Assembly (NCBI GenBank): GCA_028718785.1
Contig: JAQULB010000001.1
Location: 104,214 to 168,213 of the forward strand
Reading direction: 5' to 3'
DNA from: Minisyncoccota bacterium
GTDB lineage: Bacteria > Patescibacteriota > Minisyncoccia > Minisyncoccales > CG1-02-41-26
Length of the DNA: 64,000 nucleotides
Shown: piece by piece, positions 366-60,864 of the stretch
Position numbering within the stretch: position 1 is the stretch's first letter
Layout of the letters: each line of letters opens with the position of its first letter
Translations under genes and position numbers: made by a program
Notes under the pieces: generated by a model
Seen by the model: only the letters and a program-made list of their open reading frames with translations
What the model was told of the DNA's origin: nothing
Databases searched by the model: none

Positions 366-1062
366 ACTTTTTTTCGTCTTTAATTATTTGCCCGTCTTTA
401 ATTTGGATAATCCTGTTAGCGTAATTAGCCACTGACATTTCATGGGTAATAAGCACAATGGTGTGGCCTTGTTCTTTGTTTAGCGATTGAAAGGTTGATA
501 AAACAATCTCCCCGGTTTTGGTATCTAAGTTTCCTGTTGGCTCATCCGCCAAAATTAAAGAAGGATTGTTAACCAAAGCTCTTGCAATTGCCACTCTTTG
601 CATTTGCCCGCCAGAAAGCTGGTTGGAAAGATGATAAAAATGGTCTTCCTCTAATCCAGCATTTTTTAAAGCAACCTTAGCTTGCTCCTCTCTTTTTTCT
701 TTGGGAACATTAGCGTAAACAAGCGGAAGCATAACATTTCGTAAAACCGTTGCTCTGGGCAGCAAATTAAACGCTTGAAAAACAAACCCGATTTTATTTT
801 TTCTAACATCCGCTAACTCGTCATCAGAGAAATCAGCCACATTTTTTCCATCAAAAAAATATTCTCCGCTTGTTGGGGTGTCCAAAGCGCCCAAAATATG
901 CATTAAAGTTGACTTGCCCGAGCCCGATGGCCCAATAATTGCCACAAACTCACCCTCATTGATCTTAAAAGAAACTCCTTTTAACACAAGGTTTTCTATC
1001 GCCTGCCCCGAGCCCGTTGAGGGGCTTTTATAATTTTTAGAAACATTTTTACATTCAATCAT
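343..1062 (-). CDS. ABC transporter ATP-binding protein (MacB/LolD type)
   Basis: Walker [10 protein letters not shown], signature LSGGQMQR, Walker [14 protein letters not shown]-loop ITHE. The internal Met MIECKNV is taken as the start. Confidence 0.9.
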
Positions 1063-22755: not shown

Positions 22756-24023
22756 ATTATTTCTATTTTGCTCTGTTTGAGCGCATTCTTTATTAATTTT
22801 TTTAATTTTAGCTTTTTTTCTTCTTTTTTAACATCTTTTAAATTGGCTTTGGTGGCTGGGTGTTCGGGAACAAACATTGAACAACAGTCCAAGTGAGGCA
22901 AAATGGAAATTTCATAAGTTCCAATTTTTTTAGCCAAATCCATTATTTCTTGCTTGTCCCACCCAGACAAAGGCCGTAAAACCGGCAAACTAACTGCATC
23001 TTCAATAGCCAACATATTGTCTAAAGTTTGGCTGGCCACTTGCCCCACACTCTCCCCAGTTATTAAGGCCTTGGCTTTTTCTTGCTCTGCAATTTCGTTA
23101 GCTATCAAAAACATTACTCGTCGGTACAGCACCACCCTAAAATCGGCTTTTGTTTTTAAAACAATTTCTTTTTGGATATCCAAAAGAGGCACAAAATATA
23201 CTTTTATTTTTTCTTGATATTTTTTTAAAACTCGCAATATATCTCTTACTTTTTCAAGGGATTGCTCATAGCCCTGTTGATTGGAATAAAAATGAACAAA
23301 AATATTTTCCACCCCCCTTTTCATCATTAAGTAGCTTGCCACTGGAGAATCAATTCCTCCAGAAATTAAAGAAACAGCTTTTCCACTAACCCCCAAAGGC
23401 AACCCGCCAGGTCCTGCAAACTTTTTTGTATAAAGAAACGCGTATTTCTCTGCAATCTCTATGTATAAAATAATATCTGGATTATGCAAATCCACCTTAA
23501 CGCAATTTAACCGATCGGCAGAATTGCGCATAGATGATATTTTATTTAAAATTTCTTCCCCTAATTGCTCGTTTATTTGCTGGCTGGTTAAAGCAAAATT
23601 TTTATTGCCTCTTTTTGTTTCCACTTTAAAACTACTAAAAGTTTCTTTTTTTAAAATTTCAATGGCTTTATCTTTCAAACATTCAATGTCTTGCCCTGAA
23701 CTTGTCGAAGGGTCCTGTCCTGAACTTGTTGAGGGGTAAACCTCTTGAGCAAATACAAAATAAGTTATGCCAAAAACTTTTTGCAACGCATTTTTAACTT
23801 TTTCTTGCAAGGAGTTAAACTCCTTTGATTGGGGAAGGAGTTTTTCTCCTTCCTCTTCTTGTTTTAATTCAACTAAAATCCGACCGGAAATTCGCTTTAC
23901 ATAGTTAAAAAGAACCCTATTTTGTTGTAGGGATTTTTTTATATTTTCAACCAATTTCTCTTCAAAAAATTTTCTGTTATCTCCCTTTAAAGCAATTTCT
24001 CCATAATGACAAATAACCAGCAT
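22752..24023 (-). CDS. thiI: tRNA 4-thiouridine synthase
   Basis: THUMP-like N-terminus and PP-loop SGGIDSPVA. Contains the tandem in-frame insert PSTSSGQDPSTSSGQD. Confidence 0.9.
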   Translation of the reverse strand: MLVICHYGEIALKGDNRKFFEEKLVENIKKSLQQNRVLFNYVKRISGRILVELKQEEEGEKLLPQSKEFNSLQEKVKNALQKVFGITYFVFAQEVYPSTSSGQDPSTSSGQDIECLKDKAIEILKKETFSSFKVETKRGNKNFALTSQQINEQLGEEILNKISSMRNSADRLNCVKVDLHNPDIILYIEIAEKYAFLYTKKFAGPGGLPLGVSGKAVSLISGGIDSPVASYLMMKRGVENIFVHFYSNQQGYEQSLEKVRDILRVLKKYQEKIKVYFVPLLDIQKEIVLKTKADFRVVLYRRVMFLIANEIAEQEKAKALITGESVGQVASQTLDNMLAIEDAVSLPVLRPLSGWDKQEIMDLAKKIGTYEISILPHLDCCSMFVPEHPATKANLKDVKKEEKKLKLKKLIKNALKQSKIEII

Positions 24024-24601: not shown

Positions 24602-26344
24602 TTAATCTTTTTTTGCTTTTTCTTGCCTTTTAGCCAACAAACCGCAAATATGTCGAGCAATAATCACCGAGGTTTCTCCTGAATTAACAAACTCTTTAAT
24701 AGTGGCCACTAATTGATTATAGTTTTCCTCTTGGTCAATAACGGCTATATTTTTTACATTTAAGGCCTTCACAATATTCTCAATTTTCACGGGCTCTATT
24801 TCCTCTCCCGAACTATCTTTTCCCATTGATGGATTCACTTGATGGCCTGTCATAGCGGTTATGCTGTTGTCTAAAATAATCAACAAAAGTCCTGATTTAT
24901 TGTAAACAGAATTCATTAAGCCCGAGATTCCTGCGTGCAAAAAAGTGCCATCTCCAATAAAAGCAATTACTTTTTGCTTTTGAGCCTGGCCAGAACTTAT
25001 TTGAAGGGCTTTTTTTACTCCATGCCCAATCCCCACCCCAGAACCCATAGAAATTAAATAATCATACAAGCTATGCGGTGGCAAAGCAGCAATCATATAA
25101 CAACCAATATCACCTCCAAATACTGTTCCTTGAGGAGCGGCTTGCTTAACAGCGGCATAAAGCTTCCAATAAGGACAGGTTGGCCAGCCAGTGCAAAACC
25201 TTGGCAAGTGTTTTAATTTTTTTGTTGGTTGAATAATCTTTGGATTATAAGTTTTGCCAAATAATTTTGCCACGCCAATCGCCGTATTGTCTGGATTTAG
25301 CTCACCAACCTCTGGCAAAACATTTTTGCCAAAAATTTGCAATTTGGGATTAACAATCCTTGCAAGGCGTTCAACTTCTTTTTCCAAATAAGGGTCAAGT
25401 TCTTCCACTATTAAAACCTTTTTTAAGGGTTTAATAAATTTTTTAATTTTTTCTTCAGGCAAAGGATAAAAAAATCCAAGCTTTAAAATTGGCGCCTCCA
25501 TGCCAACTAAATCCATTGCTTCTCTTGTGTGGAGATAAGCCACTCCACTCGTTATTATGCCTGCGTTCTTTGCCTCCCCATCTTTGATTTTTGATTTGTA
25601 TTTTTGATTTTTGATTTTTGATTTTTGATTTATAGTAATGTTTACAATACTGGTTTCTGCGTGCTTTTGAATATCTTTAATTTTCTGCAGTAATTCCTGG
25701 TGCATCTCCAAAACCCTGGGGGGCATTGTTACAAATCTTTTTTGATTGCGAACAAACTTGGCCAAAAACGCTTTTGGTTTTGGTAAGACGCCCAACACGA
25801 CAGGCATTTTTTGATGCGCCACCCTGGTGGTTAGCCGAACCATTATTGGAGTTTTAAACTTTAGCGATAGTTGAAAAGCTAATTTTGTAAAATCCTTGCA
25901 TTCTTGAGCGTCTGATGGTTCAAGTGTTGGAATGTGTCCCAAATAGCTAAATCCTCTGGAATTCTCTTCTGACTGAGCAGAAGAATGGCACTGGGGGTCA
26001 TCAGCCGCTAAAATAACAGTTGGCCCTTTTGAGCCAGTATATAAAAAAGGCAACAAGCTATCGCTTGCCACATTTAAACCAAAATTTTTCATTGCCACCA
26101 AACACTTTAAACCAGCAAAAGAAGCGCCCATTGTTGCCTCCATTGCCACTTTTTCGTTAGTGGAAAACTCAAAATAAACATTGGCTTGTTTAGCTATTTT
26201 ATAAAACGAATTGCCAATTTCTGAAGCCGGCGTGCCCGGATAAGTTGACACAAATTGCAACCCTGCCTCCAAAGCGCCCCTAATAATTGCTTCATTGCCC
26301 AATAGAATTGCTTTCCCATTTGATTTTAATAAATCCTGAATCAT
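24602..26344 (-). CDS. iorA: Indolepyruvate:ferredoxin oxidoreductase alpha subunit
   Basis: GNEAIIRGALEAG..YPGTPASEI and TPP-binding GDGTFLHAG. Carries low-complexity in-frame inserts. Confidence 0.85.
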   Translation of the reverse strand: MIQDLLKSNGKAILLGNEAIIRGALEAGLQFVSTYPGTPASEIGNSFYKIAKQANVYFEFSTNEKVAMEATMGASFAGLKCLVAMKNFGLNVASDSLLPFLYTGSKGPTVILAADDPQCHSSAQSEENSRGFSYLGHIPTLEPSDAQECKDFTKLAFQLSLKFKTPIMVRLTTRVAHQKMPVVLGVLPKPKAFLAKFVRNQKRFVTMPPRVLEMHQELLQKIKDIQKHAETSIVNITINQKSKIKNQKYKSKIKDGEAKNAGIITSGVAYLHTREAMDLVGMEAPILKLGFFYPLPEEKIKKFIKPLKKVLIVEELDPYLEKEVERLARIVNPKLQIFGKNVLPEVGELNPDNTAIGVAKLFGKTYNPKIIQPTKKLKHLPRFCTGWPTCPYWKLYAAVKQAAPQGTVFGGDIGCYMIAALPPHSLYDYLISMGSGVGIGHGVKKALQISSGQAQKQKVIAFIGDGTFLHAGISGLMNSVYNKSGLLLIILDNSITAMTGHQVNPSMGKDSSGEEIEPVKIENIVKALNVKNIAVIDQEENYNQLVATIKEFVNSGETSVIIARHICGLLAKRQEKAKKD

Positions 26345-27391: not shown

Positions 27392-28549
27392 TTAATTTGC
27401 AATTATTCCACCACCCAAGAGTTCATTGGCTTTTCCGTAGAAAACAACAGATTGGCCGGGAGTTATGGCTCGTTGGGGTTTGGTAAAAACAATTTTATAT
27501 TTTTTGAAACCAAGCTTCTCTTTTACCACAGCAATTGATGGCTCTGAGCCATATCTTACTTTAGCTAAAACTTTTAAGGGCAACAATGGCTCAACCCCTG
27601 AAATCCAATTAACTCCTTTGGCGATTAATTCTTTTTTAAATAAATCTTTTTCGTTTTTGGAAACCACTAAAGTATTTTTCTTTAAATCTTTTTCAACCAC
27701 AAAATAAGGCCCGCCCGATAGCTCTATGCCTTTTCGCTGGCCAATGGTGTAAAACCAAAGCCCTTTATGCTCGCCAAGTATTTTACCTTTTACATCCACA
27801 ATTTTCCCAATTTGCGGCAACCCGGTTGCCGCAATAAATTTTTCTTGAGTTACATTGGTTAAAAAGCAAACATCGTTTGATTCTTTAGTTTTATAAGTTG
27901 GCAAACCAAACTTTTTAGCCATTTCCCTCACTTTTTGCTTGCTTTCCATTTCCCCAAGAGGAAACAGGGTTTTGGCTAATTGCCTTTGAGTTAATTTCCA
28001 AAGAAAATAACTTTGATCTTTTTCTTTGCACTTCGCTTGCATTAATTTAACAATTCCTTCTTTCTTGTTTAGGGTTTCGGGTTTAGGATTTAGGATTTCC
28101 CGCCAAAGGCGGGTGTAGTGTCCCGTGGCTAAATAATCACACCCCATTTCTTTAGCTTTTTCAAATAACAAACCAAATTTAATTTTAGCATTGCAAACCA
28201 CACAGGGGTTTGGAGTTATCCCCCTTTTATAGCTACCAACAAAATAATCAACCACTATTTTTTTAAAATCTTTTTGAAAATCAAAAATTTTAATTGGAAT
28301 ATCCAAAACCGCCCCAATTTCTTTGATTCGCTTTTCGGTTTCTATTTGCTGATTTTTATTTGGCTTTTCTTTCCATAAACGCATATGCAATCCAACCACC
28401 TCAATCCTTCGGGTTCCCTCAGGACAGGCTCCCTGTTTTAATAAAGCAGCAACCACTGAAGAATCAACTCCCCCAGATAATGCCACCCCCACTTTTTTAC
28501 CCCCGCACCAAATAAAGTCATGATGCAGGGGTGAACTTTTGTTTATCAT
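27392..28549 (-). CDS. mnmA: tRNA 2-thiouridine(34) synthase
   Basis: PP-loop VALSGGVDSSV, catalytic Cys motifs (NPCVVCN, DQSYFL). Confidence 0.9.
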   Translation of the reverse strand: MINKSSPLHHDFIWCGGKKVGVALSGGVDSSVVAALLKQGACPEGTRRIEVVGLHMRLWKEKPNKNQQIETEKRIKEIGAVLDIPIKIFDFQKDFKKIVVDYFVGSYKRGITPNPCVVCNAKIKFGLLFEKAKEMGCDYLATGHYTRLWREILNPKPETLNKKEGIVKLMQAKCKEKDQSYFLWKLTQRQLAKTLFPLGEMESKQKVREMAKKFGLPTYKTKESNDVCFLTNVTQEKFIAATGLPQIGKIVDVKGKILGEHKGLWFYTIGQRKGIELSGGPYFVVEKDLKKNTLVVSKNEKDLFKKELIAKGVNWISGVEPLLPLKVLAKVRYGSEPSIAVVKEKLGFKKYKIVFTKPQRAITPGQSVVFYGKANELLGGGIIAN

Positions 28550-30146: not shown

Positions 30147-30300
30147 TATAATAAATTCTAAATTCTAACATCTAAACTCTAAACAATGTCAAAATTCAAA
30201 TGCTTTAAATTCAAAACGGCTCAATGTGTATTTTTTGTTTTGAGTTTTGCGTTTTGGTTATTTGGATTTGTTTAGGATTTAGGGTTTAGTGCTTAGAATT
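30147..30300. repeat. MITE-like element with heptamer-array inverted arms
   Basis: Arms ATTCTAAATTCTAACATCTAAACTCTAAACA / TGTTTAGGATTTAGGGTTTAGTGCTTAGAAT. Core is shared (inverted) with 12310-12353. Confidence 0.55.
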
Positions 30301-31497
30301 TTACTTTAGTGGTGATATTTTTCTTAATTTTTCAATAATTCCTGGTAATATTTTTAAAACATAATCAATTTCTTTTTCCGTATTATATTTTCCCAAAGTG
30401 AATCTAATTGAACTGTGCGCTCTTTCAACACCCACCCCCAAAGCCATTAAAACATGGCTTGGATCTAAATTGCCCGAAGCGCAAGCCGAACCCGTGGAAA
30501 CAGCCACGCCTTTTTGATCTAAAGCCATTAAAATACTTTCTCCCTCGACTCCGCTAAAACTTATGTTTGCGTTATTGGGTAAGCGATTTTCTCGAGAACC
30601 ATTTAGGGAAGTTCCGGATATTGAGTTGAGTATTCCATCTATTAGTTTATTTCGTAATTCCTCTATTTTTGAAACTTGAAACTTGAAACTTGAAACTTGT
30701 TGAATCGCTTTGCCAAGCCCAACGATGGTGGTGGTGTTTTCCGTGCCAGGCATTAAACCCCGCTCTTGATGCCCGCCAAAAATAATGGGCTCTATTTCAA
30801 CACCCTTTCTTTTATATAAAACGCCGATGCCTTTTGGCCCGTATATTTTATGGCCAGACAAAGTTAGCAAATCAACACCCAATTTATCAACATTACAGTC
30901 AAGATAATTCGCCCCCTGAACCGCATCTATATGAAACAAAACCTTGGAACTTGGAACTCGCAACTTGAAACTTTTTATCACTTTCGCAATTTCGGCGATC
31001 GGCTGAATTACGCCAATTTCATTATTGGCATACATTATTGAAACCAAAATTGTATTCTCTTTAATGGCTTTTTCAACATCTTCTATTTTTACCACTCCTT
31101 CCCTGTTAACTGGCAAATAAGTGGCTTCAATTTGCCCATCTTTTTCCAAATGCTCAACCAACTCCAAAACCGCTGGGTGCTCAATTTGGCTAGTTATAAT
31201 ATGGGGCTTTTTTTGCGCCTGCCCTGAATTTTGCCGAAGGGCCTGCTTCACCACGCCCATAATAGCTAAATTATCGCTAATAGTGGCAGAGTCAATAAAA
31301 AATACCTCTAAAAAATTACAACCCAAAAAGTCAGCCACTTGCTGTCTTGACTTGGTTATGGCTTCGTGGGCATTTTGACCAAACCAATGCAAAGACGAGG
31401 CATTGCCAAAGTCCTGTTTTAAATATGGCTCCATTGCCCTAAAAACCTTTTTATCAATCTTGGTGGTAGCTGAATTGTCTAGATATATTCTTTGCAT
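30301..31497 (-). CDS. iscS: Cysteine desulfurase (NifS/IscS type)
   Basis: PLP Lys in SGHKIYGPKG and active-site STGSACASG. Carries three in-frame repeat inserts. Confidence 0.9.
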   Translation of the reverse strand: MQRIYLDNSATTKIDKKVFRAMEPYLKQDFGNASSLHWFGQNAHEAITKSRQQVADFLGCNFLEVFFIDSATISDNLAIMGVVKQALRQNSGQAQKKPHIITSQIEHPAVLELVEHLEKDGQIEATYLPVNREGVVKIEDVEKAIKENTILVSIMYANNEIGVIQPIAEIAKVIKSFKLRVPSSKVLFHIDAVQGANYLDCNVDKLGVDLLTLSGHKIYGPKGIGVLYKRKGVEIEPIIFGGHQERGLMPGTENTTTIVGLGKAIQQVSSFKFQVSKIEELRNKLIDGILNSISGTSLNGSRENRLPNNANISFSGVEGESILMALDQKGVAVSTGSACASGNLDPSHVLMALGVGVERAHSSIRFTLGKYNTEKEIDYVLKILPGIIEKLRKISPLK

Positions 31498-31506
31498 AAC
31501 TCTTAG

Positions 31507-31667
31507 AAGTCGTTAATGAACGAAGTGAATTTACGGATTCTTACCTGCCCGCAGTGCTACCCGCCAGCAATGCTTCGCCATAGCGATGCGGGCTGACAGC
31601 GTTGCAGGCGGGGATCCTGTTAAACGCTTCTCTCACAAAGCGTTTAATCGGGATATTCCTATATCCC
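31507..31667 (-). repeat. Structured leader element, copy B (immediately upstream of the iscS start codon)
   Basis: Same ends as copy A, plus an approximately 75-nt GC-rich internal insert at 31545-31613. Confidence 0.55.
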
Positions 31668-32121: not shown

Positions 32122-32976
32122 CTATGGCAAGTCAATCTTTCTGGCAATAATCGGTTTACCGAAGAATTGGGTGCCGAGGGTTTGGAATTCAGTGGTTAAG
32201 TCAGTGGTTAAAAAAACGTGCTGGCTTTTTTTGCTCAATTGCTTTTCAATTTCAGGGTGCCTCTGCAAGTAATCCGCCAACTTTTCTGCCACTACTTTGC
32301 CTTCTGAAATAACCTGAACATCTCTGCCAACCTGTCCTGAGTTTTGCCGAAGGATTTCCTTTGTCTGTTTTTCTAAAATTCCATAATGCGTGCAACCCAA
32401 AATTAAAGTATCTATTTTTTTAGCTACAAGCGGTTTTAAATATTTTTGCAAAGCCATTTTGGCAATTTCTGAGTTGTGCTCTCCCGCCTCCACAATTGGC
32501 GCTAAAAGCGGAGCTGGTGTTTGAAAAACTTTTACTTTTGGATTTCTTTTTTTTATCTCTCGAGTAAAAGCCCCTGACTTAATTGTGCCTTCTGTGGCAA
32601 TAACCCCCACTCTGTTATTTTTAGTTATTTCAATTGCCTCCTCAACTGCTGGAATAATTACCCCTAAAACTTTTTTGTCTGGATATTTTTTAGACAAGCA
32701 TTCCTGCTGGATTTTTCGCAAGGCCTCACTTGAAGCAGTGTTGCAAGCTAAAATTACCAAAGGACAATTTTTTTTAAGTAAAAAATCCACGGCTTGTTTT
32801 GTAAAATTAAAAATAACTTCTTGGCTTCGCGAGCCATAAGGTGTTCTGGCAGTATCGCCCAAATAGATAAAATCATATTGGGGCAGTTCTTTAGCAATGT
32901 GCTTGGCAATTTCCAATCCCCCAAACCCAGAATCAAAAATGCCAATTGGCCCCTTTTTGTATGTTTCAAGTTTCAT
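32122..32976 (-). CDS. murI: Glutamate racemase
   Basis: FDSGFGGL, ACNTAS and GCTHY motifs. Confidence 0.9.
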   Translation of the reverse strand: MKLETYKKGPIGIFDSGFGGLEIAKHIAKELPQYDFIYLGDTARTPYGSRSQEVIFNFTKQAVDFLLKKNCPLVILACNTASSEALRKIQQECLSKKYPDKKVLGVIIPAVEEAIEITKNNRVGVIATEGTIKSGAFTREIKKRNPKVKVFQTPAPLLAPIVEAGEHNSEIAKMALQKYLKPLVAKKIDTLILGCTHYGILEKQTKEILRQNSGQVGRDVQVISEGKVVAEKLADYLQRHPEIEKQLSKKSQHVFLTTDLTTEFQTLGTQFFGKPIIARKIDLP

Positions 32977-34111
32977 GTTTTATATTGTGAGCCAACTGTC
33001 CACAAGCCCCTTTTATGTCTTCCCCAAATTTATAGCGCTGAACTGCGTCAACACCCTGCTTTTTTAATATCTCTTTAAACATTGCTATTTTTTCCTTGCT
33101 TGATGGCTTAAACTCCAAAATGTCTTGGCTTTTAAAATCATTATAAGCAATTAAATTAACAAAATAAAAATTCTTGCCTGCTCTAAAATTAACAGGCGCT
33201 TTAAATTGTTTTACAAACACAGCCAAATCAAAAGCGTCTTTTTCTGAATCATTAATGCCTTTTAACATTAAGTATTCAAATATTATTCTTTGGTTTGTTT
33301 GTTTGATATAAAAATCAATGGCGCGGGATAATTCTGTTAAATCGTGATTTTTGGCTATGGGCATTAGTTTTGCCCGCAAGGTTTGATTGGCTGTGTGTAA
33401 AGAAAACGCTAAGTTTGGCCAGCCCGCATTGGCTACGCCAGAAGCGTTGCTGACGGGTTTAATTTTTTCTTTAGCTAATTTTTTAATGGCCCAGGGAATA
33501 CCCACTGTGGAAATGGAAATTTTGCGCATTGAAATATTAAAACAATTCTTGTTGTTTAAAATATTTATTGCCTCAATAACATTGTCATAGTTAAGCAACG
33601 GCTCTCCCATACCCATAAAAACTATGTTGGTTATCCTTCGACTTCGCTCAGGACAGGCCTTTCGATCCTGCTCAGAATCTTCTAATTTCAATAATCGTTC
33701 AAAAAACAAAACTTGCTGAATAATCTCCCAGGCCGTTAAACTTCGTTTTAACCCGCTTTTTCCAGTTAAACAAAATAAACAACCCATTGAGCAACCAACC
33801 TGCGAGGAAACACAAACCGTATTTCTTTCCCTTCGACTTTGCTCAGAACCTTTGGCTTTATGCTTCATCAAAACAGCTTCAGCTTTTAAGCCGTCTTTTA
33901 ACAATAAAGCAATTTTAACAGAATTACTTTTTGCAGAAACCAAAACATCCGCTTTTATTTCAAGCGGAAGTTCTTTGTTGAGTTTATCTCTCAAGGTTTT
34001 TGGCAAATTGCTTGCCTTGTCCCAGTTGCTTATTGAATCCTGAAAAATCGCTTTTTGCGCCTGCTCAACCCTGAAAGCTGGTTCGTTGCTTAAAATTTTT
34101 TCTAACTCCAT
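32966..34111 (-). CDS. rlmN: 23S rRNA/tRNA adenine-C2 methyltransferase (radical SAM)
   Basis: CSMGCLFCLTG radical-SAM cluster, GMGEPLLN, C-terminal GACGQL. Confidence 0.9.
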   Translation of the reverse strand: MELEKILSNEPAFRVEQAQKAIFQDSISNWDKASNLPKTLRDKLNKELPLEIKADVLVSAKSNSVKIALLLKDGLKAEAVLMKHKAKGSEQSRRERNTVCVSSQVGCSMGCLFCLTGKSGLKRSLTAWEIIQQVLFFERLLKLEDSEQDRKACPERSRRITNIVFMGMGEPLLNYDNVIEAINILNNKNCFNISMRKISISTVGIPWAIKKLAKEKIKPVSNASGVANAGWPNLAFSLHTANQTLRAKLMPIAKNHDLTELSRAIDFYIKQTNQRIIFEYLMLKGINDSEKDAFDLAVFVKQFKAPVNFRAGKNFYFVNLIAYNDFKSQDILEFKPSSKEKIAMFKEILKKQGVDAVQRYKFGEDIKGACGQLAHNIKHET

Positions 34112-45402: not shown

Positions 45403-47088
45403 TTACTTGTCAATGCCAAAAGCTAAAAATAACCTGGCCAAACGCAGTTCGTCAAAAGAGTATTGGCCTTGAAATTTTTCAAAAACTGGCTGGAGTTTAT
45501 CTGTGTCTAATTCACGAAACACCTTGCTTATTTCTGGCATTCTCAAGATCAATCTTTCGTCAATTAATTGTTCCAAAGTTTCATAGCTGATTTTATCTTT
45601 TAAAACCAGGTTTTCCAAATGGCTAATGATTGTTCCTTTGGTTAATTTTCTTGCTCTAATAATTTCTTCAATATTTTTTCCCTCTGCAATTAAAGCCAAT
45701 GTTTTATCATAAGTGCTGGTTTTTTCTTTTTTGTTTTGGGCCTGCCCTGATACTTGCCGAAGGGCCTGTTTTTCTATCGCTCCCCCGCAGGCCTTTAAAA
45801 AGTTATTTTGTTTTTCCAAAATTTTTTCTTTTGGAATTAAAGAAAAATTCTTTTGGGCTTGTTGTGATTGTTCCCTAAAAACCTGGTCTTGTTGTTGCAT
45901 TTGAGGATGCGTTAAAAAGGCCTTTTGATTGTGCCCCAAAAGATAAAGCCCGGATAATCTTCGCACCCTTGATAAAGCAACGTAGCCCTGGCCAAACTCA
46001 AATGTTTTTTGCAAATCAATAACCGCCCCCTCCAAACTCATACCTTGGCTTTTATGAATGGTAATGGCCCAAGCCAATCGCAGTGGCACTTGAGCAATTC
46101 TGGCTTTAATGCTCCCCCCGTCTTCAATAGTCCACTCCATTGGAGATACTTCAATTTGCTCCCCAGTTGCTATTTCAACAATTGGGTAATTGTTTTCTTC
46201 ATTAAACCCAATAACCTTGCCAATTGTGCCATTAACAAAGCCCTCTTTGATGTTGTTTTTAGTGAACATCACGCAAGCGTCTTTTTTTAACTCTAATGTT
46301 TCAGGTGATAAACAGCCCTTTTTTAAATTTTCCACAAAATTTCTCTGGCCTCGAGAAAACATATAAAAAAACTCTGGCTTGCCTGGTAGCTGGCTTAATT
46401 CTTGACTGTTAACTCTATCCACATCCATATTATGAGAAAAAATTCGAGTAATATTTTTTGGCGTTTTTTCAAACTCAACAACTCTATTTTTGATAACTTG
46501 CAAATGCTTATTGTCAAAACTGTTAGTTCTAATAGCTGAAAGCATTGTTAAAAAACTTGCGTCATCTTGTCTGTATTGCTCAGTTAAATAACAAACCGCG
46601 AAATTGGCTTTTTCCCAAGCAGGAGACGCAAAAGCAAATTGCGCTTGGTTGCCAATTGGGGGCAATTGAAAAAAATCTCCCACCACCACAACCTGCAAAC
46701 CCCCAAAAGGTTCTTTATTTTCCAAAATTTGCTTGCAAACCAAATCAACCATTGTAAAAGTGCCGGCCTCCAGCATTGAAATTTCATCAATAATCAAAAC
46801 TTTGGCTTTTAACACGCGCTTTTTAACATATGAGGTTTTGGCAATTTTTTCTAAATCTCTTTTGCTAAGATGCTCTTTTATGCCAATTCCCGCCCACGAG
46901 TGGATAGTTATGCCGTTCAAATGAGTGGCGGCAATACCAGTTGAGGCGGTTATGGCTGGAGCAATGCCATGCTCTCTTAAATAATCAGCATATTGATTAA
47001 CCGTGTGTGTCTTGCCAGAACCCGGCTCCCCGGTTAAAAAAACATTAACTCCGGTTTTTAAAATTTCTAAAGCTTGCTCTTGTGTCAT
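45403..47088 (-). CDS. Pif1/RecD-like SF1 helicase with C-terminal HTH-like extension
   Basis: Walker A GEPGSGKTH, Walker B LIIDEISM, QLPPI, TIHKSQG, ALSRVR motifs. Confidence 0.85.
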   Translation of the reverse strand: MTQEQALEILKTGVNVFLTGEPGSGKTHTVNQYADYLREHGIAPAITASTGIAATHLNGITIHSWAGIGIKEHLSKRDLEKIAKTSYVKKRVLKAKVLIIDEISMLEAGTFTMVDLVCKQILENKEPFGGLQVVVVGDFFQLPPIGNQAQFAFASPAWEKANFAVCYLTEQYRQDDASFLTMLSAIRTNSFDNKHLQVIKNRVVEFEKTPKNITRIFSHNMDVDRVNSQELSQLPGKPEFFYMFSRGQRNFVENLKKGCLSPETLELKKDACVMFTKNNIKEGFVNGTIGKVIGFNEENNYPIVEIATGEQIEVSPMEWTIEDGGSIKARIAQVPLRLAWAITIHKSQGMSLEGAVIDLQKTFEFGQGYVALSRVRRLSGLYLLGHNQKAFLTHPQMQQQDQVFREQSQQAQKNFSLIPKEKILEKQNNFLKACGGAIEKQALRQVSGQAQNKKEKTSTYDKTLALIAEGKNIEEIIRARKLTKGTIISHLENLVLKDKISYETLEQLIDERLILRMPEISKVFRELDTDKLQPVFEKFQGQYSFDELRLARLFLAFGIDK

Positions 47089-49574: not shown

Positions 49575-49672
49575 TCAAGCTCCGACCTTGACCTAATTAC
49601 AAAAGAAAAAACCCTTCAATGCTTCAGGGCTTATTCTGAATTTATTGAATGGTTTTTTATTTAAATAATTTT
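49512..49672. repeat. Direct repeat copy 1 (typA 3-prime end + intergenic + obg 3-prime end)
   Basis: 49563-49668 matches 50591-50696 at about 90 percent. 49512-49530 matches 50582-50600. Confidence 0.8.
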
Positions 49673-50581: not shown

Positions 50582-50697
50582 ATCCGCTTACGCAAAAAAT
50601 AGTCAAACCCCGACCTTGACCTAATTACAAAACAAAAAACCCTTCAACACTTCAGGGCTTGCTCTGAATTTATTGAATGGTTTTTTGTTTAATAAGT
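50582..50697. repeat. Direct repeat copy 2
   Basis: See 49512-49672. Carries a remnant of the typA end (NIRLRKK-stop) with a 42-nt deletion between two CGCAAAAAAT microrepeats. Confidence 0.8.
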
Positions 50698-53797: not shown

Positions 53798-54206
53798 TGA
53801 TTTAAGTTATTATAATAAAAACAACTCATAAAAAATGAGTCGCAAATAATATTGCTCGTTTTTTTAAAAATTATTTGTAGATCAAAACTCTCTGCTTAAT
53901 TCAAGTATACACTTTTTTACCCCAAAAAACAACTTAATTGCGCTTTTTGCTTTGCTTTTCTTTTTTTACAGCAAGCATAGCTCTTTTTATTTCTAATCGT
54001 TTTTTAGTTTTATGAGAATGAGTTTTGCGCGCTTTTCCAACTCCATTTTTTCTTTTAGCCATATATTTTTTATTTAATTACTTCTTGAGTATAGCAGAAA
54101 ATTACAGCAAAAGAAAATACAGCGTATTCAACATGCTAAAATCTGACCGAAAGGCCGTTGATTAAGCAATTTAAAATCTGACTGAAATAATATAATAGCA
54201 AAAACC

Positions 54207-54319
54207 GCCCTGAGTTTATCAAGGGCGGTCCTCGACAGGTTCTAACATCGTCCAATGAGCTCCGCTCGCTGGCTGACAACCCGTCCTGAGTTTATTGAAG
54301 GATTAGAACCTGTTTTATA
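54207..54319 (+). ncRNA. Candidate structured element or sRNA built from the CCTGAG..GAAGG repeat family
   Basis: TATAAT at 54195-54200. Hairpin ACCGCCC/GGGCGGT. Long-range stem ACAGGTTCTAA/TTAGAACCTGT followed by TTTT. Confidence 0.3.
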
Positions 54320-55448: not shown

Positions 55449-55587
55449 CTCTCTTTCTATTTGTTGCTTATTCTACTATTAATGACCAAAATTTCAGCTT
55501 ACCTTCCACACTACTCCGCATTTTTAAAAAATCAAATAAAAAGTTCAAATTCTATTCGGGGTATAGCCCCTTCGGCCATGTTCAGAG

Positions 55588-55768
55588 CAAACAAAAAGCC
55601 CCTATAAAAAAAGGCCTTTTAAGGGTGCCTGCGCTGAGGGCTTCGACTGAGCTCAGCCGAAAGTCCTTGTCGAAGTGCTCCGCCTGTTGGACGAAGTTCG
55701 AACATTTTATCTCCCCCACACCACGAGTTGCGCTGGTGAAACACACAACTGGTTTTTCCAAAATTTTA
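55588..55768. repeat. Island repeat block X1
   Basis: 55588-55680 matches 58291-58385. 55677-55768 matches 59494-59584. Confidence 0.8.
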
Positions 55769-55888
55769 ATAATTTATAAAAAATTCCCCTTACCTTAAAA
55801 AGGAGGGGGAATTTACTTTTTGGAACAAAAAGTTTTAAATATTTTGAAGGCACGATCCTCTCACAATCGTACCTTCAACTTTTTAATA

Positions 55889-58290: not shown

Positions 58291-58385
58291 CAAACAAAAA
58301 GCCCTTATAAATAAAGGCCTTTTATCGGTGCTCGCACTGAGGGCTTCGACTGAGCTCAGCCGAAAGTCCTTGCCGAAGTGCTCCC
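58291..58385. repeat. Island repeat block X2
   Basis: About 90 percent identical to 55588-55680. Confidence 0.8.
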
Positions 58386-59289: not shown

Positions 59290-59720
59290 ATTTTATTCCT
59301 GCGCTCCGCGGGTAGGCTCCCGATTTCTTATACGGTACTCCGTATGTTGAAATCGCAGTCCCTTGGGAAATTCGAAGAGTTTGCCCGAAGATATTGCTCC
59401 CTCGCCTGCTGGCTCGGGACAATTCGGGAATAGGTTCTCATAACACGCCTCACAGAGCAACCAAAAACCTCCTTTGATAGGAGGATTTTGTTTGCTCCGC
59501 CTGCTGGACGAAGTTCGAACCTTGTATCTCCCCTGCGCCACGAGTTGTGCTGGTGAAACATCTAACTGGTTTTTCCCAAATTTTGAGGAATAAAAAAACC
59601 ACTCTTTCGAGTAATCTTCCTCCCACATCTAAACCCACAAATAATTTATGAACTTAGATATAGGTAAGTGGCTAATTTTTCATTTTCTGAAAAAATTAAC
59701 CACTTACAAAATTTTTAATT
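59290..59720. repeat. Cluster of nested GC-rich repeat elements (block X3 + twin-hairpin module copy c)
   Basis: 59494-59584 matches 55677-55768. 59623-59708 is the twin-hairpin module. GAGCCAGCAGGCGA is shared with 16318-16331. Confidence 0.7.
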
Positions 59721-60752: not shown

Positions 60753-60864
60753 TATTATATTCTACCCCATTTCTTTCCCCTTTCCCAACCCTAGGCCTAC
60801 CCTTAGTGCTTCGACTTTGCTCAGCATAAACTCCTCGAAGGGTTCGAACATTGTCCAGATCTTT

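Follow-up and report, generated by a model that had tools for sequence, protein, structure and literature searches.

What is the short GC-rich motif that recurs, without breaking the reading frame, in conserved genes of a Patescibacteriota genome? The question is raised by a 64,000-nt stretch of assembly GCA_028718785.1 (Minisyncoccota bacterium; contig JAQULB010000001.1, forward strand, positions 104,214 to 168,213), which we call the window; its base composition is 36% GC, and the host belongs to a Pacebacteria lineage of the candidate phyla radiation (CPR). The motif is a unit of 23–25 nt with the sense-strand consensus Y-CCTTCGRC, a spacer of 4–5 variable bases usually ending in GC, and TCAGGRCAGG(C). 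We infer its movement from presence and absence among relatives and from empty and filled sites, and we consider it likely that the unit is a very small, non-autonomous, dispersed mobile repeat. Nor is it private to this genome: it recurs nearly unchanged across phyla and phages, which goes beyond what the initial annotation of the window had described.

The unit in genes of the window

The 11-mer CTCAGGACAGG, allowing up to one mismatch, matches the window six times against 0.18 expected. The longer pattern YCCTTCGRC-N4/5-TCAGGRCAGG(C), allowing up to three mismatches, gives 6 + 4 matches against 0.02 + 0.05 expected (10 full-pattern matches against 0.07 overall), a count reached in none of 100 shuffled windows, and a profile built from the window copies retrieves 13–14 sites. 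These matches bear out the presence of the motif where it had been annotated. With degenerate copies included, 11 units lie in eight genes, whose identities are backed by Pfam and PDB searches (an ABC ATPase, ThiI, IorA, MnmA, IscS, MurI, RlmN with three units and a Pif1-like helicase), and about six more are intergenic. All 11 coding units are free of stop codons and keep the frame; of the earlier claim of in-frame copies in at least ten genes, the in-frame part therefore stands, while the gene count falls to eight. The coding units are:

1001–1024, minus strand: ABC-transporter ATPase, amino acids (aa) 29–36, PSTGSGQA; 3 mismatches
23690–23737, minus strand: ThiI, two tandem units with a 24-nt period, aa 97–112, PSTSSGQD twice
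24984–25008, minus strand: IorA-like 2-oxoacid:ferredoxin oxidoreductase, aa 446–454, LQISSGQA
28404–28429, plus strand (antisense, the gene being on the minus strand): MnmA, aa 41–48, ACPEGTRR
31217–31242, minus strand: IscS, aa 86–94, LRQNSGQA; 0 mismatches
32331–32354, minus strand: glutamate racemase MurI, aa 208–216, LRQNSGQV; 0 mismatches
33635–33679, plus strand (antisense): RlmN site 2, two tandem units, aa 145–159, DSEQDRKA and CPERSRRI
33829–33850, plus strand (antisense): RlmN site 1, degenerate unit, aa 88–95, GSEQSRRE
45740–45765, minus strand: Pif1-like helicase, aa 442–450, LRQVSGQA; 0 mismatches

The translated copies show both peptide types that had been proposed, SGQA-type in one orientation (LQISSGQA, LRQNSGQA, LRQNSGQV and LRQVSGQA among them) and CPE..RR-type in the other (ACPEGTRR, ACPERSRR, DSEQDRKA, GSEQSRRE). 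One annotated copy was lost on inspection: the NuoF-like segment ILQQVQGK (10404–10425, plus strand; annotated at 10404–10421) has four mismatches to the motif and aligns without a gap to solved NuoF/HydB homologues, and is therefore a chance resemblance and not an insertion. The loose motif pattern gives about five chance matches per shuffled window.

That the remaining segments are lineage-specific and not ancestral, as the initial annotation had supposed, is borne out by orthologue alignments. The syntenic relatives (L001/L126, L002/L003 and L125) share 80–85% protein identity and the same gene order with the window, and comparison with L001, L002, L124–L126 and L249 showed that the units are missing from relatives in IscS, MnmA, IorA, MurI and ThiI. 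Alignments to solved structures contain gaps of 5–16 aa exactly at the units. In the IorA-like protein (Pfam POR_N and TPP_enzyme_C), the unit corresponds to an exact 24-nt (8-codon) gap in L001/L002, with the empty site AAAAAAGCC|ACAAAG and the filled site AAAAAAGCC[CTTCAAATAAGTTCTGGCCAGGCT]CAAAAG. In MnmA the unit is a 7-aa gap against solved MnmA structures and also against L001 and L002, in MurI (Pfam Asp_Glu_race) a 7-codon gap in L002, and in the ABC ATPase (Pfam ABC_tran) a 5–6-aa gap in the alignment to MJ0796 structures. The IscS unit, bordered by CAGGC on each side, is a 7-aa gap against solved IscS; relative to L001/L002 the net change is +4 aa, with residues replaced, and the predicted junction peptide is QALRQNSGQAQK. 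In the Pif1-like helicase the unit lies in the linker separating the PIF1 and HTH_40 domains and is shared with a single orthologue, P0247. The net change there is just +2 aa, which indicates that the unit replaces variable linker.

In ThiI, both units are missing from the 84%-identical orthologues in L001 and L002. L249 carries just one unit, canonical in sequence (CCTTCGACAGGCTCAGGGCAGG), at the junction where the window has the pair. Given that the window pair has a 24-nt period and that both of its units are AT-decayed, it appears that one insertion was followed by tandem duplication. The empty site in relatives, GAA|GCTCAGCAAGAT, looks like the right arm of the unit itself, which would fit a habit of nested insertion, and the predicted peptide across the junction is VYPSTSSGQDPSTSSGQDIECLK. 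At RlmN site 2, the older unit (33635–33658) is common to the window, L126 and L125, whereas the degenerate second unit (33659–33679) is found in the window only. This same loop holds, in L124, a canonical unit that points the other way, so the loop was probably hit independently. The site 1 unit is present in the window and L125 and absent in L126 and L124.

The expectation that the insertions sit in surface loops agrees with AlphaFold models of these two proteins, in which the units form coil of low predicted local distance difference test (pLDDT) score between secondary-structure elements. In ThiI (mean pLDDT 81), residues 95–112 are coil between strand 88–94 and helix 113–124, and the units have a pLDDT of about 50. 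The RlmN model (mean pLDDT 84, predicted template modelling score 0.87) places insert sites at residues 88–95, 144–161 and 217–232, all in coil of low confidence; site 1 has a pLDDT below 50 at residues 89–92, and site 2 is a low-confidence segment that follows helix 127–143. Against Cfr/RlmN structures, the gaps at the unit sites are 7 aa (site 1) and 16 aa.

The units are unevenly spread among close relatives. The block from ThiI to RlmN holds nine units in the window and 0–1 in L001/L126 and L002, and overall, 13–14 units per 64 kb of the window compare with about 2 per 30 kb of L001/L126 and with none in 21 kb of L002. By these counts, the unit has expanded in this Pacebacteria lineage beyond its numbers in the closest relatives that have been sequenced. 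Orthologous but sequence-diverged copies occur in independent assemblies (L125, L126 and L249).

Five of the six reading frames of the unit are open, the sixth reading CTG-YCC-TGA. Within the window the seven sense units are all read in the SGQ frame, and the four antisense units all in the CPE frame. We surveyed 272 exact-pattern instances from other genomes and viral contigs, 78 of which lie in a dominant open reading frame (ORF) of at least 250 aa. Their frames are SGQ (32), P[VA]LS (15), AQ[GD]R (13), CPE (10) and LR[AT]G (8). This usage is uneven (chi-square p = 1e-4), although long ORFs in GC-rich DNA can be spurious, and it agrees with the frame bias that the initial annotation had asked about, with the SGQ frame over-used. 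The 24-nt form, with its 5-nt spacer, is not enriched in coding DNA (54% vs 44%, p = 0.35), which suggests that the frame is kept by survival and not by unit length. Nor is the unit itself enriched in genes, since 12 of 17 copies are coding in a window whose coding fraction is 82% (p = 0.22); a preference of insertion for genes was thus not borne out.

Target sites, distribution and intergenic copies

The unit enters DNA as a discrete, sharp-ended block and does not duplicate its target site, as is seen at the IorA site above and at sites outside the window. In an Acidobacteria locus (L077), empty and filled copies of another repeat differ by exactly the unit, and a flank-to-flank search added about 15 further empty/filled pairs that differ by 23–25 nt, with a target duplication of at most 1 nt. 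The flanks show a trend, the left one ending in GA and the right one beginning with CT. Besides genes, the targets are of three kinds: hairpin loops, usually just after the 5' stem arm (L057/L006, L071, L119 and L171, the last being the loop of a CGTC-type repetitive extragenic palindrome, REP); tandem heptamer tracts (L019, L013, L216, L234, L228); and the centre of related units, where copies become nested (L034, L202, L210). Tandem duplication can follow insertion, as described above for ThiI, and tandem arrays elsewhere (L046, L096, L164) have a 24–25-nt period. In a group II intron of Leeuwenhoekiella (L061), the unit is a clean 25-nt insertion in the covariance-model alignment. A 24–25-nt unit occupies the same domain 1 position of this Bacteroidota intron in two genera (L061, 6146–6395; L050), which suggests that mobile introns can ferry it.

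An exact-pattern scan of 596 Gb, with one genome per species, returned at least 120 loci, a number that is uninformative on its own since we estimate about 140 chance matches in that much sequence. The positions left unspecified by the pattern are, however, far from random. Of 128 instances in other genomes, 97% carry C or T at position −1 and 87% carry C at position +1; the spacers are mostly AAGC, AGGC, TTCGC or TCCGC, whereas bases farther out look random. Position −1 moreover covaries with the internal R (72 C-G, 22 T-A, 27 C-A, 4 T-G; p = 1.4e-7).

As a precise insertion the unit spans more than 15 bacterial phyla, and phage contigs carry it too. The matches listed are mainly from Acidobacteriota and Chloroflexota, with further carriers in Bacteroidota, Verrucomicrobiota, Planctomycetota, Nitrospirota, Proteobacteria, Myxococcota, several candidate phyla and eight CPR lineages. 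Copies occur in cultured isolates (L005, L027, L061, L067), and the cultured Bacteroidota carriers are Gelidibacter, Leeuwenhoekiella, Aequorivita and Seonamhaeicola. At species level, cultured carriers include Edaphobacter aggregans, Gelidibacter mesophilus and Leeuwenhoekiella aestuarii. Cyanobacteria were absent from the genome matches listed, and E. coli gave no match in 28 Gb of complete genomes. In low-GC genomes, in-frame copies lie in genuine genes, those for HsdM, LepA, an ATP-dependent DNA ligase, the CCA-adding enzyme, a radical-SAM protein, a secretion ATPase and a NUDIX protein. Plasmid carriers include Sphingobium, with a doublet (L128) resembling REPINs (paired inverted REPs), and Trichlorobacter, in which the unit lies in frame within an IS91-like transposase. 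Among the phage contigs listed, up to at least 11 copies fall within 14 kb, some in tandem arrays with a 24-nt period, and a contig that encodes a terminase (L130) has five copies. Matches of 20 nt found by BLAST in Pseudomonas phage tail-fibre genes were set aside, as they seem to go back to a single chance match passed down within a clade.

The intergenic copies and derivatives in the window are:

35793–35842, plus strand: composite copy with left and right arms 27 nt apart
49609–49665, plus strand: two motif-like halves in inverted order that make up a terminator-like hairpin, with a T run after it (−13.5 kcal/mol, z = −4.2 for 49600–49670)
50637–50693: second inverted-pair copy, 92% identical to 49609–49665
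54203–54229: hairpin-forming variant near the unit at 54276–54305 (−10 kcal/mol, z = −5.1 for the fold of 54200–54232)
54276–54305, minus strand: unit ATCCTTCAATAAACTCAGGACGGG, found by pattern match
55566–55591, plus strand: degenerate unit CCTTCGGCCATGTTCAGAGCAAA; 3 mismatches

The gap in the composite copy holds an inverted motif-like piece and is thus a nested arrangement. Of the five intergenic regions annotated earlier, 35793–35842 and 54207–54319 stand, whereas those at 55621–55676, 58321–58385 and 60800–60853 have just the TTCGAC..GCTCAG core in common with the unit and are part of a separate repeat of about 190 nt; acceptable additions are the copies or derivatives at 49609–49665, 50637–50693 and 55566–55591. 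The ~190-nt module recurs at 55588–55781, 58291–58384, 59493–59598 and 60800–60855, holds the perfect palindrome CTTCGACTGAGCTCAGCCGAAAG and a GTTCGAAC box, and adjoins small ORFs and a Fic-domain gene. A hairpin formed by the single unit was considered and rejected: its stem has at most 4–5 bp around a loop of 11–12 nt, and minimum free energies of −0.7 to −4.7 kcal/mol are no better than those of shuffled sequences (z from −0.25 to +1.1). Strong folding is confined to the intergenic inverted pairs and the variant (49600–49670, 54200–54232).

An origin of the unit in tRNA was likewise rejected, as ARAGORN calls no tRNA in the window. Rfam gave no match in the window at gathering thresholds and, at permissive ones, nothing meaningful on a tandem array or on the tRNA-like region described below. 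The unit may bear some likeness to the 5' end of 16S rRNA (GCTCAGGACGAACG) and to tRNA T and D arms, a resemblance on which we do not rely.

Known systems and competing explanations

By described behaviour, the closest system known to us is the small dispersed repeats (SDR1–8) of Nostocaceae cyanobacteria. According to Elhai et al. (2008), SDRs are reportedly 21–27 nt long, inserted precisely as blocks, nested and embedded in heptamer repeats. The unit, at 23–25 nt, falls in the same size class and is likewise repeated and dispersed. It shares precise insertion, as judged from empty and filled sites without target duplication, and it shares nested copies (L034, L202, L210 and 35793–35842 in the window) and residence in heptamer tracts. 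To our knowledge, SDRs have no known encoded enzyme, and systematic in-frame residence in CPR housekeeping enzymes is not part of the SDR description as we know it. SDRs are reported as confined to Nostocaceae (PMC4390886, PMC5861425), whereas the unit extends to over 15 further phyla and to phages.

The initial annotation had compared the motif to Rickettsia palindromic elements (RPEs), reported by Ogata et al. in 2000 and 2002. RPE-1 is palindromic and about 105–146 bp long, and RPEs are restricted to their genus. Elements of the RPE-1 type (about 100–150 bp) add 30–50 aa, whereas the unit adds 7–8 aa in 23–25 nt, has no stable hairpin when single (z about 0 against shuffles) and crosses phyla. 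RPEs are repeats that lie in frame within functional genes, at the protein surface, in a small AT-rich genome (PMC3184786, PMC3733652). The likeness consists in an in-frame repeat inside conserved genes, absent from orthologues (11 units in eight genes), and in its placement at the protein surface, here coil with pLDDT of about 50 or below in the ThiI and RlmN models. The comparison thus holds for the in-frame behaviour and fails for membership in the palindromic RPE/REP class, the unit having 23–25 nt and no long stem.

MITEs, the miniature inverted-repeat transposable elements, and BRE repeats occasionally fuse in frame with genes (PMC3184786). MITEs such as Correia/NEMIS, RUP and Nezha resemble the unit in being non-autonomous and in showing copy-number bursts in single lineages; they differ in their 50–400 bp, terminal inverted repeats and target-site duplications, all of which the unit lacks. 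A literature text search found no prior description of the motif DNA or its peptides, and nothing relevant on CPR with palindromic or in-frame repeats.

If the unit is a mobile repeat, insertion would be roughly random with respect to genes, and a copy in an essential gene would survive when the net length is a multiple of three, the site is a tolerant surface loop or linker and a short polar peptide is translated, which is feasible because five of the six frames are open, the SGQ frame probably being the best tolerated. AT-biased decay, small compensating deletions and tandem duplication would later reshape the copies, and intergenic inverted pairs may double as terminator-like hairpins. As to how the unit moves, we can offer a guess. 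The way it targets loops, heptamers and its own kind suggests that single-stranded nucleic acid is acted on, or that copying from a template takes place at stall sites; a trans-acting enzyme might thus move the unit on single-stranded DNA or RNA or, alternatively, it might be copied from an abundant donor where replication stalls, and phages and group II introns might carry it from lineage to lineage. More tentatively, and as something we think rather less than probable, the unit could represent a pan-bacterial class of nano-transposons that insert, without duplicating the target, at exposed single-stranded sites through trans machinery or templated copying. Such a class would span Acidobacteriota, Chloroflexota, Bacteroidota, the Planctomycetes–Verrucomicrobia–Chlamydiae group, Nitrospirota, Proteobacteria, CPR and their phages, and its targets would be hairpin loops by the 5' stem arm, tracts of heptamers, the centre of its own units and DNA that codes for mRNA.

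Several observations weigh against a mobile repeat. The units in Pif1, IscS and ThiI partly replace loop residues and are not clean insertions, a pattern that patchy gene conversion would also give, and recent movement is judged from genomes that have diverged by 15–20% and whose junctions are blurred. The 23-nt form and the 24-nt form turn up equally often inside and outside coding DNA; the in-frame property is therefore not built in, and extra junction bases must be assumed. A long master copy, sought as arms 0.03–5 kb apart in 124 loci, yielded only two variants with 21-nt spacing and one 81-nt case. No candidate for a mobilising gene turned up: the ORFs at 54–64 kb of the window encode only a Fic protein, an SMC-like ATPase and unknowns, and the copy-rich phage loci only a terminase, a DUF1376 protein and a beta-helix protein. 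The covariation of position −1 with R could come from subfamilies instead of a base pair, and a near-identical unit over phyla of 32–70% GC is hard to explain for a selfish, decaying element.

Could the unit be an ordinary REP or RPE palindrome moved by a REP-associated tyrosine transposase (RAYT), as has been proposed for GTAG REPs? REPs, too, are short, GC-rich and dispersed, they form inverted dimers between convergent genes, and intragenic examples are documented (Di Nocera et al. 2013, PMC3733652). Inverted doublets are seen here at 49609–49665 and 50637–50693 and, REPIN-like, in the Sphingobium plasmid (L128), while most copies are single or in direct tandem; some copies read CGTC or TGTC at one end (e.g. 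54280), and the covariation of position −1 with R would lengthen the 4-bp stem. The CGTC REPs (among them RPE-4 and RPE-6 of Rickettsia) are hairpin repeats with no dedicated transposase known, and their hairpin has a stem of 8–9 bp and a loop of 4–5 nt (PMC3733652). The unit has no such stem, with 4–5 bp around 11–12 nt, and a single copy folds no better than shuffled sequence. It also seems to have no consistent GTAG/CGTC tag, its reverse strand beginning (G)CCTG[C/T]CC, with the variable base covarying with position −1, and only some copies reading CGTC/TGTC. No RAYT or other transposase was found among the ORFs scanned in the window, which is 64 kb of the genome. Each REP family keeps to one species, whereas the unit is conserved over phyla, and the copy inside the loop of a CGTC-type REP (L171) indicates that the two are different entities. 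We therefore regard a REP origin as improbable. A motif gathered by biased uptake or gene conversion, like the DNA uptake sequences and uptake signal sequences (DUS/USS), or serving as a recombination signal, would account for its presence on either strand, in certain preferred frames and in variable parts of proteins, for inverted pairs acting as terminators and for the sites that resemble replaced loop residues. The DUS/USS motifs of Neisseria and Haemophilus, however, arise by substitution and occur about once per kb across a lineage, whereas the unit is a 23–25-nt block missing from orthologous sites, at about 0.2 per kb here and about 0–0.07 per kb in sisters of 80–85% identity. Tandem and nested copies would not be expected, and the identical motif in many phyla would require a shared specificity factor; we give this explanation very little credence.

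It is scarcely credible that the units are tiny intervening sequences, removed from RNA or skipped so that the proteins lack them, even though the RNA gene of a group II intron and hairpin loops that are transcribed also hold the unit. All 11 coding units are in frame and stop-free although one frame has a TGA, the 23- and 25-nt forms are common outside genes and yet the frame is always kept inside them, and coding copies sit in loops only, with a frame bias towards polar, flexible peptides. Such constraints would be needless if the units were excised. Finally, the notion of ancestral or selected peptide modules (an SGQA linker, for example), or of chance matches and assembly artefacts, is largely refuted, and we leave it next to no weight. 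It accounts for the NuoF-like site, a truly ancestral lookalike, and for the over-use of the SGQ frame. Against it stand close orthologues without units, the use of both orientations and of all five open frames, the many copies that are non-coding or in RNA genes, the 10 matches where 0.07 were expected, and diverged orthologous copies in independent assemblies and in cultured isolates besides. A mobile repeat remains the explanation that we favour.

If this is confirmed, the lower size limit of mobile DNA falls to about 24 nt outside cyanobacteria, which would point to a new mobilisation mechanism working in very different bacteria; should the pan-bacterial class be real, it would be a general generator of loop insertions in bacterial proteins. 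The unit offers a concrete origin for many of the short lineage-specific loop insertions that are prominent in CPR proteins and a natural map of insertion-tolerant sites in IscS, MnmA, ThiI, RlmN and MurI. The motif also accounts for recurrent spurious peptides in metagenomes (..FDKLR.., ..LRLRSGQA.., ..PELVEG..). It can confound alignments and gene calling, and could be put to use in marking strains and in tracing phage–host exchange.

Other repeats and RNA-like genes

The unit is not the only repeat within genes of the window. A second short repeat, AAGGAGTT(T/A)AACTCCTT, is truly palindromic and lies in frame in ThiI (23808–23852) and in the ORF of an energy-coupling factor transporter S component (12681–12725 in ORF 12387–12935). 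The ThiI copy codes for EGEKLLPQSKEFNSLQ, which the AlphaFold model shows as coil of low confidence. Orthologues of ThiI differ in related KLLP/KEFNSFQ segments, and one of them (P0011) has a GIRNQES repeat with a 7-aa period. A third, GC-rich family (GCCAGC..GCGTTGC..GGCTGGC) is represented in RlmN at 33407–33457 (aa 219–230) by the loop insert VSNASGVANAGW, of which L126 has a longer form and L124 none. The intergenic stretch that separates IscS from MurI holds a palindromic relative of 79 nt (31542–31620).

Tandem heptamers of the TTTAGGA/TTTAGAA type and TTTTTGA occur at 12244–12385, 30147–30302, 28065–28098 and 25580–25624. The last tract, within IorA, gives a 10-aa insert (KSKIKNQKYK) that relatives lack. 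In other genomes, heptamer tracts are likewise sites that the 24-nt unit favours.

CPR orthologues of ThiI, RlmN and Pif1 (P0012, P0019, P0024, P0132, P0205, P0213, P0242, P0250 and others) contain many other lineage-specific loop inserts with recurring peptide themes, namely GLPCPVGSPAGDPF, FAKASAGK, PIRNLPGSNKAG, LSEVEG and, at other sites, SGQA. In-frame repeat-derived inserts therefore appear to be general in CPR proteins.

Two paralogous RNA-like genes of about 95 nt lie at 13059–13152 (plus strand) and at about 35538–35630 (minus strand). Both combine an acceptor-type stem of 7 bp with a T-arm-like hairpin (GCGGG-N7-CCCGC), and in both the ACCA of the 3' end is encoded. They are called by neither ARAGORN nor Rfam, and their middle hairpin shows compensatory changes.

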